A DNA stretch of 64,000 nucleotides from Sulfolobales archaeon (GTDB lineage Archaea; Thermoproteota; Thermoprotei_A; Sulfolobales; NBVN01). The DNA lies in assembly GCA_038841535.1 (NCBI GenBank), contig JAWBTQ010000004.1, forward strand, positions 1-64,000, written 5' to 3'. The notes under the pieces were generated by a model. The model searched no databases. It was not told where the DNA came from and was given only the letters and a program-made list of their open reading frames with translations. Position numbers and translations under genes: made by a program. Shown piece by piece: positions 2,442 to 5,768 of this stretch (the first letter of the stretch is position 1; each line of letters starts with the position of its first letter).

Positions 2442-3695
2442 CTATTCCGTAGAACTCCCAGTTTCTAGATATGGTATGCTAGAACACTCTTTTAGCGGCC
2501 CAATTAAGGTAACTTCGACTTTGCTACCCTCATCGTATCCCTCAAGATCCTCAGGTATCTCAAGGATGGCATTGGCTTTTAACAAAGTTGAAAGTATACC
2601 TGAGCCCGTGAGTCTGAGTGGCACTATCATGACTTCACCTCGGTCTTGACACGCAATGACTCTATAGAAAGACCTGAATCCCACCTCGTTGGATAGTCTT
2701 CGCACTAACTTCCCACTAATTGTCGGTTTAACCTCTAAAGAGCTACCGAAGGCTTTATTCAGTATAGGGGTCAGAAGTAGCTCTAAGCTTATGTATGCTG
2801 CTACCGGAAGACCCGATATTAGGAGTACAGGCTTACCGTTTACGACATAGGCACTAGCAGTTCTTCCTGGTCTAATTCTAACACCGCGAAAAATCTCTCT
2901 AGATGACTCTAGCCTTAGAACAGCATCTGGGGCTAGGTCTCGCGACCCAACTGAAGTTCCTCCAGTAATAATTGCTACATCAGAAACCCGTAATGCGTTT
3001 CTCAAGGCTTCCGCTATCTCCTCAATGTCATCGGGAATCACTTTAGCGTAAACAACTTCTCCACCCATCTCTTTAATGTATGCGGCGATCAGGTAGTAAG
3101 TTGTGTTAGGAACTAGTCTCTTCAGTATTTCATCGCCGGTATTTAATACTGCGATCCTCGGCTTTCTAAAAACCTCGATTCTATCGTAACCTGATGCGGC
3201 TAGGGTAGCTACATGCCATGGCTTTAGCTTGGTGCCTTTACGAACTATGGTATCTCCTACTCTAAGGTCCTCTCCACGAAATGATATATTAGAGTACCTT
3301 GAGTACGTTCTGTATAAATAAACTAAGTCATCCCTTACGAGGCAGTACTCGAGGGGGATCACCACATCAGCTCCACTAGGTATTGGGGCTCCAGTTGACA
3401 CTAGCGCTGCTTCAGATCGACCAATCGACGTAACGTCACTACTGTCTACGTCTACTCTACCAACTAACTTAAGTAGCACGGGTGAGCTCTCTGAGGCTCC
3501 AGCGATATCGGAGAATCTTGCCGCAACACCGTCTACAGCAGACCTATCGAATGGAGGTAGATCGACTTTTGAGACGTAGTCTCTATAGACATACCTTCCA
3601 ATAGCATCCTGAACATCGACGATCTCTCCTCCAATGTCTACTGAGATCTCGCTAACGAGTCTCTCGAGGGCTTCACTAGCACTCACAAACTTCAT
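2442..3695 (-). CDS. moeA: Molybdopterin molybdotransferase MoeA
   Basis: PPFDRSAVDG, TGAPIPSGAD, TGDE, ITGGTSVG, RPG, SG.LSTL. The longer ORF start overlaps the tRNA, so ATG 3695 is used. Confidence 0.93.
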   Translation of the reverse strand: MKFVSASEALERLVSEISVDIGGEIVDVQDAIGRYVYRDYVSKVDLPPFDRSAVDGVAARFSDIAGASESSPVLLKLVGRVDVDSSDVTSIGRSEAALVSTGAPIPSGADVVIPLEYCLVRDDLVYLYRTYSRYSNISFRGEDLRVGDTIVRKGTKLKPWHVATLAASGYDRIEVFRKPRIAVLNTGDEILKRLVPNTTYYLIAAYIKEMGGEVVYAKVIPDDIEEIAEALRNALRVSDVAIITGGTSVGSRDLAPDAVLRLESSREIFRGVRIRPGRTASAYVVNGKPVLLISGLPVAAYISLELLLTPILNKAFGSSLEVKPTISGKLVRRLSNEVGFRSFYRVIACQDRGEVMIVPLRLTGSGILSTLLKANAILEIPEDLEGYDEGSKVEVTLIGPLKECSSIPYLETGSSTE

Positions 3696-3800
3696 AGCCT
3701 TACCCACTTCTCGGCACCCAACAACGCCAGCAACCTTACTTCCAACGTGTTGTTTCAGTAGCCAACCTTTATAAGCCAGTATCATCAAAGTGTATCTGGT

Positions 3801-3875
3801 GCCGCGGTAGTATAGCCCGGCCAAGTATGCGGGCCTTTCGAGCCCGTGACCCGGGTTCAAATCCCGGCCGCGGCA
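3801..3875 (+). tRNA. tRNA-Glu (anticodon TTC), intronless, CCA not encoded
   Basis: Acceptor stem GCCGCGG/CCGCGGC, anticodon arm CGGGC-CTTTCGA-GCCCG, T-arm CCGGG-TTCAAAT-CCCGG, TATA TTTATAAG at 3768. Confidence 0.97.
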
Positions 3876-3981
3876 CTAATTATGACGCCGATAGCTATCT
3901 CCGATGGCCTAAATAACTTAACGAAGTACTGCGGATAACTTATTAAACTAGGTTATAAAGAATACTCGGTGAGCTACTTAA

Positions 3982-4335
3982 GTGTCATCGGAAGGTGAGA
4001 TTGAAAAGAAGAGGGATATAAAAGTCCTCCTCTCAGTGATACCTCCAGCAGAAGCCTTGAGAAAACAAAGGAGCTCTCCACAAGAGAGGAGAGTGAAGCT
4101 GAAGTACAACTCTGTAGTAAAGACCGGTAGTCTCCACGTAAACCCAGAGCTGGCTAGAGAGCTCTCCATAGGTGATTACGCCGAGATCTCAGTTCACGGA
4201 AAGAGAGTAAAGCTGAAAGTTGTAGTAAGCGAGAAAGTTCCGCAGGGTGAAGTGTGGGGTTCTGCCGATTTGAGAACTCAGGGAATAGCCGATAACAGTA
4301 TCGTCACCATCAGGTCTGCTGCCCAGCAGAGCTGA
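3982..4335 (+). CDS. Hypothetical protein, likely double-psi beta-barrel (Cdc48-N / molybdopterin-dinucleotide-binding-like)
   Basis: GGTGA SD. Two similar halves, V(N)PELAREL.IGD.AEI and GEVW....LR..GIADNS.VTI, are typical of this fold. Confidence 0.6.
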   Translation: MSSEGEIEKKRDIKVLLSVIPPAEALRKQRSSPQERRVKLKYNSVVKTGSLHVNPELARELSIGDYAEISVHGKRVKLKVVVSEKVPQGEVWGSADLRTQGIADNSIVTIRSAAQQS

Positions 4336-4338
4336 GAA

Positions 4339-4346
4339 CTTAAAAG
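4339..4346 (+). promoter_or_regulatory. Putative TATA box for a leaderless aRF1 mRNA
   Basis: CTTAAAAG lies 30 nt before GTG 4369, the usual archaeal TATA-to-TSS distance. An alternative TATA-like TTATATA lies at 4354. Confidence 0.45.
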
Positions 4347-4368
4347 AGCCTTCTTATATAGTTCTTGG

Positions 4369-5485
4369 GTGTCGAGCATTTAGCTTTGAAAACCTCGAGA
4401 TTAGCAAGGAGGGGCTCAAGCCCCTCATCAAGGAGTTAAAGAAGTGGAATGCTCACGCAACAACCCTTCTATCTCTTTACGTACCTTCAGGTAGACCAAT
4501 AGGCGACGTAGTGAATATGCTTAGACAAGAGCTCTCTATTACTGAGAACATAAAGCTAAAAAGAACCAGGTCTAGAGTTCAGTTCGCTCTTGAGTCAGCT
4601 ATAGATAGGCTCTTGAAAATACCGAAGATACCCAGAAATGGACTCGTAGTGTTTGCTGGAGAACACGATGAAACGGGTGAAACTATAGTGCTAGTGTTCT
4701 CACCTCCTGAACCAATCAACGTGTTTTTCTATAGGACGGATAAGTACTTCCACACGGAGTTTCTTGAGAGCATGGTAGAGGAGAGTGACGTATACGGTCT
4801 AATAGTCATTGAGCGCGATGAGGCAACTATAGGCCTCTTAAAGGGTGGAGCTGTAGTAGTTCTAGATGAACTAGAGGCATACATACCTGGAAAACACAGT
4901 AAGGGAGGATGGTCCCAGAGGAGATACGATAGAATAATTGAGGAGATGGTCGAGGAGTTCTATAAAAAAGTTGGTGAGAAAGCTGGTAGCTACTTTATAC
5001 CACTACTAGAAGGAGGCAAGCTAAGGGGTGTCATAGTCGGAGGTCCTGGGTACTCGAAGCTGGATTTCGTTAAGGGTGGATACCTTGACTATCGCCTTCA
5101 GAAAGCGGTTCTAGGGAACCCTCTAGACGTGAGCTCTCAGGGTGAGCCTGGTCTCAGGGAACTAATTGAAAAAGCAAAAGAATTTATCAAGGAGACGAAG
5201 TATCATAAGACTAAGGAGGTCTTAGATGAGTTTAAGTACCACCTAGCAAAAGACGATGGACTGGCCACGTACGGTGAGCTAGAGATAGCTAGGGGACTTG
5301 AGTTAGGTGCTGTTGAGGCACTCATCATCGTAGAGGATTATCCTAAGCTAGCAGAGCTGAAGAATCTAGCTGAGTCGAGGGGTACTAGAATAGTAGTTGT
5401 TAGTGAAGAGTTCATGGAATACGAGTGGCTTAAGAAGGCTTTTGGCGGAGTCGTAGCTATACTAAGATATCCGCTGATTAGCTAG
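4369..5485 (+). CDS. prf1: Archaeal peptide chain release factor aRF1 (5' end needs a +1 frameshift; GGW in place of GGQ)
   Basis: The frame from 4379 reads FSFENLEISKEGLKPLIKELKKWNAHATTLLSLYVPSGRPIGDVVNMLRQE, followed by NIKLK, YRTDKYF, GKHSKGGWSQRRY and FGGVVAILRY. There is no in-frame ATG/GTG/TTG between the stop at 4286 and 4511. Confidence 0.9.
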
Positions 5486-5768
5486 TTTCCTCGCCGCCTC
5501 CTTCCTCTTCGCTGAGGAGGTCTAAGAGAATTTCGTAGAACTCTTCTTTCTCCTGCTCAATTTCCTCCTGGCTTCTCGTCAGCCCTCTCCCTTCACTCAC
5601 GATAGACGTAGTCTTTACTTTAGATTCCGAACCTGCTTTACCAGATAGCCTGTACTTTTCTCCTCTCTTAGATACCTCTTCATAACCGCAACTTGGGCAT
5701 TTGTATATGTAGTTATTATCTCTTTTCTGAGGCACCATTACTGTTCCACACTTAGGGCAGAACTTCGT
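5478..5768 (-). CDS. TFS/RpoM-family zinc-ribbon protein (TFS2-like: N-terminal ribbon plus acidic tail)
   Basis: (ACG)KFCPKCGTVM..YKCPSCGYEE..TTSIVSE..acidic tail. It lacks the C-terminal ribbon with the catalytic DE motif. Confidence 0.8.
   Translation of the reverse strand, partial: TKFCPKCGTVMVPQKRDNNYIYKCPSCGYEEVSKRGEKYRLSGKAGSESKVKTTSIVSEGRGLTRSQEEIEQEKEEFYEILLDLLSEEEGGGEETS

Follow-up and report, generated by a model that had tools for sequence, protein, structure and literature searches.

A mini-open reading frame preceding the archaeal release factor gene aRF1 in Sulfolobales and relatives: evidence for a probable programmed +1 frameshift

Feedback on the level of a release factor by means of ribosomal frameshifting has so far been viewed as a speciality of bacteria (and of giant viruses). 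In the bacterial prfB gene, which encodes release factor RF2, an autoregulatory +1 frameshift reportedly takes place at the sequence CUU UGA C. A +1 shift at a zero-frame stop codon is also used by eukaryotic antizyme, which acts as a feedback sensor of polyamines and makes use of a downstream RNA structure. Here we describe an arrangement at the 5′ end of the gene for the archaeal release factor aRF1 in the DNA of a Sulfolobales archaeon (contig JAWBTQ010000004.1, positions 1 to 64,000 of the forward strand; this whole 64,000-nucleotide stretch is termed the window, and coordinates refer to it). The arrangement is real and conserved and, as judged from sequence comparisons, most likely constitutes a programmed +1 frameshift by which the synthesis of aRF1 is gated.

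The eRF1-type factor of Mimivirus (R726) and Megavirus (mg280) is produced through frameshifting plus readthrough, which has been read as autoregulation, and the available part of that report states that such autoregulation is absent from the eukaryotic and archaeal homologues (PMC3521657). The present locus resembles the viral one, as described in that part, in that a factor of the eRF1/aRF1 family needs recoding at stop codons. The viral gene, however, is recoded twice, once by readthrough, whereas the gene in question here is cellular, single-copy and presumably essential and would require one shift. For archaea, the sole programmed frameshift in the available text of a 2021 review of recoding was the −1 shift of fucA1 in Saccharolobus solfataricus, and the word aRF1 occurred 0 times in that text (PMC8211752). 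As described there, fucA1 is also a case of frameshifting by the ribosome in a crenarchaeon belonging to this order, but the shift is −1, takes place on A-AAA-AAT and concerns a glycosidase from a single strain that is not essential; that shift is neither located at a stop codon nor in a translation factor, nor is it widely conserved. The first 300,000 characters of a 2016 review of frameshifting also contained aRF1 0 times (PMC5009743), and the only archaeal case named in the available text of the GeneTack survey, whose supplements might list more, was magnesium chelatase (PMC3711429). An earlier note on this DNA, in which the frameshift was proposed, knew of no described archaeal equivalent, and our literature search, from which subscription journals and supplements were excluded, likewise yielded no description of an archaeal aRF1 frameshift.

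The relevant features of the window, all of which are on the plus strand, are as follows.

4339 to 4346, plus strand: TATA-box-like sequence CTTAAAAG, located at −30 to −23 from the G of GTG 4369
4367 to 4371, plus strand: GGGTG, overlapping the start codon and complementary, with one G-U pair, to the 3′ end of 16S ribosomal RNA (...GGAUCACCUCCU)
4369 to 4383, plus strand: mini-open reading frame (mini-ORF) GTG TCG AGC ATT TAG (M S S I stop), the zero frame, as read from the sequence
4378 to 4384, plus strand: candidate shift site ATT TAG C, with AUU in the P site, the stop in the A site, UUU at 4379 to 4381 and AGC (4382 to 4384) as the next codon
4382 to 5485, plus strand: body of aRF1 in the +1 frame, 367 codons and a TAG stop at 5483 to 5485, assigned from profile and structure-sequence matches
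4400 to 4402, plus strand: ATT, the start in the public annotation (MSKEGLKP..., 361 amino acids), rejected as the real start
4511 to 4513, plus strand: GTG, the first canonical in-frame start, rejected owing to the loss of 44 conserved residues

The reading of GTG (4369 to 4371), TCG, AGC, ATT, TAG (4381 to 4383), CTT and TGA (4387 to 4389) reported in the earlier note was confirmed together with its coordinates. The +1 frame relative to this GTG is open from 4289, directly after a TAG at 4286 to 4288, as far as the TAG at 5483 to 5485, and a frame scan bore out the assertion that this frame is devoid of ATG, GTG and TTG codons between the stop at 4286 and the GTG at 4511. When read from TTT 4379, the frame matched the NCBIfam aRF1 profile TIGR03676 with a score of 431.6 bits (cut-off, 234.7), and the three domains of eRF1 (PF03463, PF03464 and PF03465) were all detected above their cut-offs. 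Residues 4 to 366 of this aRF1 could be aligned with residues 8 to 370 of the Aeropyrum pernix aRF1 structure 3AGK (E-value, 6.5e-123). Initiation at 4511 would, therefore, cost the protein 44 conserved residues, in agreement with the earlier statement that the homology extends more than 40 codons upstream of this codon, and was rejected for this reason; ATT 4400 was rejected because the codon at this position is variable among relatives. The product predicted for the joined frames is MSSI followed by SFENLEISKEG... and has a length of 371 amino acids.

An archaeal TATA box is normally found at a distance of this order 5′ of the transcription start. As the position of CTTAAAAG fits this geometry, the mRNA is predicted to be leaderless or nearly so, starting at or just before GUG 4369. 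The box was kept in 8 of the 10 loci of the genus, the exceptions being L009 and L011.

The 5′ regions of 153 aRF1 genes were compared, 70 by script and 83 by eye on alignments; the sampling was non-random and weighted to family f1, and related genomes are not independent. Regions were placed in the mini-ORF class when an ATG, GTG or TTG was followed by two to four further sense codons and then by a stop codon and when aRF1 was encoded in the +1 frame. This class comprised 86 of the 153 regions: 30 of 39 in f1, 7 of 7 in f4 (Ignisphaera), 1 of 1 in f5, 4 of 5 in f6, 5 of 5 in f7, 15 of 15 in f10 (Desulfurococcaceae, including Thermogladius and Thermosphaera), 1 of 3 in f12, 22 of 22 in f13 (Sulfolobaceae, including Saccharolobus islandicus, Acidianus, Metallosphaera and Sulfodiicoccus) and the one genome of f15, which belongs to a neighbouring order (1 of 1). 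The mini-ORF was, in other words, spread over 8 of the 13 families of the order plus one genome of a neighbouring order. An ordinary in-frame start was present in 60 regions, namely, in f2 (Pyrodictiaceae, including Hyperthermus butylicus and Pyrodictium occultum; n = 6), f3 (n = 1), f8 (n = 8), f9 (n = 3), f11 (n = 7), genus g11 of f1 (Zestosphaera; n = 6), f12 (n = 2), other orders of the class (n = 5) and other classes of the phylum (n = 22). The stop was retained without an in-frame canonical start in four regions (G048 and the g11 genomes G236, G237 and G239), and three were left unassigned (L035, G325 and G383). Among the 23 regions from other classes, the mini-ORF was missing in 22 and the remaining one was unassigned. 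To judge by these alignments, recurrence of the mini-ORF in 86 of 153 regions is far beyond chance. A continuous reading frame in relatives, which the earlier note had named as an observation that would speak against a frameshift, was indeed found in the 60 regions with an ordinary start, mostly in other families, but the mini-ORF was still in the majority; the early stop plus frame change for which the note had suggested examining relatives recurred in eight families.

Two observations on individual sequences were made during this comparison. In L253 (genome G383, from another class and Thermocladiaceae-like), ATG GTG TCC TAG is located at positions 51 to 62 of the oriented region, just past a TATA-like box, and aRF1 is in the −1 (or +2) frame. 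A flag of one TAG inside the aRF1 of family f22 turned out to be merely the natural terminal stop.

The distance from start to stop in the mini-ORF loci was 9, 12 or 15 nucleotides (nt), invariably a multiple of 3. Within families f4, f6 and f10, this distance varied and the start alternated between ATG and GTG. The inner codons also varied freely (TCG AGC, CCG AGC, CTA GGT, ATG CGT, AGT, GGT, TCT and others). The codon before the stop was NTT in 84 of the 86 loci (ATT, 44; CTT, 26; TTT, 11; GTT, 3), and a stop was present at the site in all 86 (TAG, 65; TGA, 19; TAA, 2). Occurrence of all three stops fits with the recognition of all three by aRF1. ATT TAG was kept in 10 of 10 genus-level loci, with variants of the site being found across eight families. 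A second site, CTT TGA at 4384 to 4389, had also been regarded as a part of the device in the earlier note; this part of the proposal had to be abandoned, as the second site was not conserved, with TGA being present in three of the 10 genus loci and CTT in the window only.

Twelve Sulfolobaceae genomes, representing seven genus codes, exhibited GAT, one variable base and then an invariant GGGATGAGTCTTTGA, while the codons past this sequence varied synonymously (AAG/AAA, TAC/TAT, TTA/CTC and CAA/CAG). The other 10 Sulfolobaceae loci had ATG, AGT or AGC, CTT and then either TGA (six loci) or TAG (four loci). Directly 3′ of the site, the substitution pattern was of the translated type, with synonymous and conservative codon changes, both in the genus of the window and in the Sulfolobaceae; hence, selection at the protein level acts just 3′ of the site. 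The aRF1 frame of Sulfolobus acidocaldarius (G308) opens with TGA GTC TTT, and its first canonical start is codon 32, within the LSLYIPPGRP core; the aRF1 translation of this genome is fully identical to the portion modelled in PDB chain 8hku_ARF1 (PMC10516650). Public aRF1 entries have scattered starts, located at MKALIKELKKW, MKKW or LYIPPGRP in Sulfolobaceae and at ATT 4400 in the window, and annotated aRF1 has the whole N terminus in the in-frame relatives H. butylicus and P. occultum. The scatter of these internal starts indicates that no ordinary start exists. The layout, its conservation and the absence of another usable start are direct observations, as is the selection immediately downstream of the site.

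We consider, with a probability of roughly 70%, that aRF1 is made by programmed +1 frameshifting in competition with termination, presumably with feedback on the aRF1 level. The core of the earlier note, namely, a stop-dependent and prfB-like +1 shift from the GTG frame into the aRF1 frame, is to this extent supported by the occurrence of the layout among relatives. Translation would begin at GUG 4369, which would be located at the mRNA 5′ terminus or close to it, and would proceed through UCG AGC AUU, upon which UAG would enter the A site. Termination by aRF1 would then release a tetrapeptide. In the alternative outcome, the peptidyl-tRNA-Ile would move from AUU to the overlapping UUU, AGC would be read next and the 371-residue aRF1 would be produced. 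In the mini-ORF loci as a whole, two to four codons would be read before slippage of an NUU-decoding peptidyl-tRNA onto UUU. As aRF1 itself reads the stop, the balance between termination and shifting should depend on the level of aRF1, and low aRF1 would favour shifting, a negative feedback as in prfB. The N-terminal junction is predicted to be (M)SSISFENLEISK in the window and (M)SLDRYEINR in S. acidocaldarius. We infer the GUG start, the slip and the feedback by analogy with prfB.

All stop codons start with T, and an NTT codon followed by a stop, therefore, offers UUU in the +1 frame. With standard pairing, G34 tRNAs keep two pairs (Ile and Val) or three pairs (Leu and Phe) after the slip. 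Re-pairing on UUU is expected to be full for UUU and CUU, which account for 37 loci, and to have a first-base mismatch for AUU and GUU, which account for 47 loci, including the window.

The likeness to prfB is extensive. Both are class-I release factor genes with an early zero-frame stop that is read by the gene's own product, both have NUU in the P site such that a +1 slip lands on UUU, and both layouts are conserved over a broad range of organisms, apart from secondary losses. The CTT TGA C of Sulfolobaceae is a heptamer identical to that of prfB, and C is the commonest base 3′ of the stop in the archaeal loci. There are also differences. The archaeal protein has the aRF1/eRF1 fold, is unrelated to RF2 and belongs to another domain of life. 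The archaeal site is located at codon 4 or 5 of a 3- to 5-codon mini-ORF at the 5′ end of the gene rather than at codon 26, each of the three stops is employed, with UAG being predominant, and AUU is the commonest shift codon. Finally, the element complementary to the anti-Shine-Dalgarno (anti-SD) sequence overlaps the start codon in the archaeal loci. Antizyme shares with the aRF1 loci a +1 shift at a zero-frame stop within a feedback loop but senses polyamines rather than a termination factor, and the downstream structure of antizyme has no conserved counterpart in the aRF1 loci.

The latter statement derives from two sets of alignments, the 12 Sulfolobaceae and the 10 genus loci, in neither of which was a conserved RNA structure detected 3′ of the site. 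For the Sulfolobaceae, nine pairs were predicted, of which 0 had a compensatory change, and the sole feature was a weak hairpin, UYAGGGA-UGAG-UCUUUGA, that spans the site itself. The genus loci exhibited a helix of UUAGCUC with GAGCUNA 50 nt downstream, again with no compensatory change, and this helix was lacking in other families. Positions 4369 to 4470 of the window, taken alone, fold unusually well (−36.7 kcal/mol; z = −3.85) through pairing between the shift-site sequence GAGCAUU and an AAUGCUC located 70 nt further 3′, a pairing that was not kept in the relatives within the genus.

A number of observations weigh against a programmed frameshift. The SD-like element ends 6 to 7 nt before the shift codon, in comparison to ∼3 nt in prfB. 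The 16S ribosomal RNA ends in ...GGAUCACCUCCU in the genome of the window and in ...CCUCAU in S. acidocaldarius. Complementarity to these ends is found in GGGTG in the window, in GGTGATC at the corresponding position in sister genera and in the GAGG or AGGG that precedes ATG in other loci; for GGTGATC, the gap to the shift codon is reduced to 3 nt only if this element is fully paired. A spacing of 6 to 7 nt is that of an initiation site, and prfB-like stimulation is, therefore, not supported. The earlier remark that there was no room for an internal SD was thus correct in so far as the spacing is longer than that of prfB but overlooked the element overlapping the start codon. The first-position mismatch of AUU and GUU on UUU is a further difficulty, and on this point the view of the note that AUU re-pairs more weakly is shared by us; TAT TAG, present in L020 and L021, the two exceptions to NTT, re-pairs poorly after a +1 slip. 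Three g11 genomes, G236 (L072), G237 (L073) and G239 (L076), keep ATT TAG with a GTG that is 13 nt upstream and out of frame, such that neither frame has a start at the site, and a TTG is located 10 codons downstream; in G048, ATA stands in place of the ATG of the others. These four genomes would, under the frameshift model, be unable to make full-length aRF1. They may use the TTG 10 codons downstream; alternatively, the GTG may matter as a part of the anti-SD-complementary element rather than as a start. In the six other g11 genomes, GGTGTG places a GTG in the aRF1 frame, and g11 looks like a lineage caught in the act of losing the frameshift. In some Ignisphaera-like loci, the aRF1 frame is open upstream and an in-frame start is possible; in L064, a GTG is found 13 codons upstream, and MFEGCPFS is the beginning of public protein P0092. 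Lastly, the aRF1 of the window has GGW at its catalytic motif, and normal peptide release by this protein is an assumption.

Other explanations of the layout were considered. The frameshift could be real but constitutive, in that an ancient one-base insertion is corrected at a fixed rate without any regulatory role. Thermoproteaceae-like outgroups start in frame with ATG AGT TTT AAA (MSF...) and family f11 with ATG AGC TTC CAG. Addition of one T to ATG AGT TTT AGC generates ATG AGT TTT TAG C, a form found in f10, and the shift-codon residue (I, L, F or V) occupies the position of F in the in-frame relatives. As the outgroups are in frame, a single extra T explains the origin of the site, which likely arose in this manner. 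Resemblance of the site to a T insertion is as expected for constitutive correction, and so are losses without visible harm, exemplified by the in-frame GTG in six of nine g11 genomes. This explanation is, however, unlikely in our estimation: the shift codon precedes a stop in 86 of 86 loci and never a rare sense codon, the reading of this stop by the gene's own product makes sensitivity to the aRF1 level almost unavoidable, and the site is invariant among at least eight Sulfolobaceae genera while adjacent codons drift. We also doubt that there is no frameshift at all, with aRF1 being started at a non-canonical or internal in-frame codon (ATT 4400 or a V or I codon before S-K) and the mini-ORF being a tiny upstream ORF or a ribosome-binding element. 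The public annotation does start at ATT 4400, several f1 genera have GTG at this same codon (in L013 to L016 and L020, 15 codons ahead of the Trp codon in the conserved KKW motif), a downstream TTG is available in the three g11 genomes with an out-of-frame GTG, and the SD-like element, with GGTGA being complementary to the anti-SD, has a spacing typical of initiation. Codon 4400, however, is ATT, ATA, ATC or GTA in the genus and CTA, ATA, TTA, CTT or ATC in Sulfolobaceae. The residues upstream of it (F-S-E-Y or F-D-K-Y) are conserved with synonymous codon changes and are, hence, translated. In many loci, the aRF1 frame is interrupted by a stop located one to three codons 5′ of TTT, with nothing resembling a start codon separating the two. 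Starts within the frame would, moreover, leave unexplained why the upstream start always shares the frame of the stop.

Alteration of the mRNA instead, through transcriptional slippage or editing that drops one U of the UUU run, would account for the T run at the site in 84 of 86 loci. The run amounts to just 3 to 4 T (2 T in L020 and L021), useful slippage of the polymerase needs runs far longer than this, and a conserved stop codon is not needed for such a mechanism, which we regard as very improbable. An assembly error or a decaying pseudogene is conceivable for a metagenome-assembled genome consisting of 40 contigs and 84% complete, and an extra T arising from misassembly had been raised as a caveat in the earlier note. 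No differences and no gaps were detected over positions 4250 to 4650 in contigs from four public runs of four studies (2017 to 2023; depths of 4.2 to 188.7), although the contig of run X12 covers 4250 to 4630 only; X12 was not marked as a possible source, while the window DNA may derive from the other three runs. The same layout is present in independent genomes, including complete genomes of cultured species, and the gene is the only aRF1 of its genome, with the remainder of the frame being intact and conserved. Assembly error was accordingly rejected and, together with a pseudogene, is given almost no credence. In an RNA run, X13, a fraction of 0.04 of the sampled words was present.

The odds lean slightly towards a broader interpretation, in which a large crenarchaeal clade, including Sulfolobaceae, Desulfurococcaceae, Ignisphaera and the Zestosphaera family, would gauge its termination capacity via a mini-ORF of 3 to 5 codons, located at the 5′ end of the aRF1 mRNA and ending in a stop codon that must be bypassed by +1 slippage. 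Programmed +1 frameshifting would thereby be recorded for the first time in a cellular gene of archaea, as would a feedback loop acting on an omnipotent release factor, and the device would be mechanistically unlike prfB in acting within the first five codons of a leaderless or near-leaderless mRNA with the start codon inside the anti-SD-complementary element. The same solution would then have evolved independently on an unrelated protein fold, and database entries for aRF1 in these organisms would have wrong, truncated N termini. The proposal would be directly testable, as the layout is present in genetically tractable Sulfolobus species, and would provide a natural and very short +1 frameshift cassette that functions at high temperature.

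A search for a second intact aRF1, as suggested in the earlier note, detected none in the genome of the window, for which, at 84% completeness, absence is unproven; nor was a bacterial-type release factor domain (PF00472) found in this incomplete assembly. The other match in this genome was 35% identical (E = 5e-10) and was pelota-like by its score against TIGR00111. A single aRF1 match was present in each of 41 related genomes, and 309 of the 325 genomes of the whole order had a match. The stop-recognition motif was NIKL in 30 of 30 loci examined, and A. pernix aRF1 likewise has NIKLK; NIKL is, on this evidence, apparently the normal form of the NIKS motif in the order.

The universally conserved catalytic GGQ motif is absent from the aRF1 of the window, which has GGWSQRR, with Trp (TGG at 4910 to 4912, plus strand) replacing Gln; the sequence context at 4904 to 4924 is KHSKGGWSQRRY. 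GGW was found in 21 of the 30 loci, all of family f1, and the remaining nine had GGQ, which is retained by f1 genera g5, g7 and g8 and by other families; Zestosphaera tikiterensis has GGW. The literature search, with the limits given above, found no paper combining GGW, GGQ and "release factor". The protein of the window is an aRF1 orthologue by descent, and standard catalysis is assumed for the GGW lineage. The frameshift layout also occurs in GGQ lineages and is independent of GGW.

Genes adjacent to aRF1 were also noted. A zinc-ribbon-like ORF of 86 amino acids (5478 to 5738, minus strand) is convergent with aRF1 and shares its last 8 bases; the match of this ORF to transcription factor S was weak (24.4 bits; cut-off, 64.75). 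Upstream, a tRNA-Glu gene (anticodon TTC; 3801 to 3876, plus strand) overlaps the 5′ end of the longest TTG-started version of a MoeA-like ORF on the minus strand (2442 to 3860), the real start of which is probably further in.

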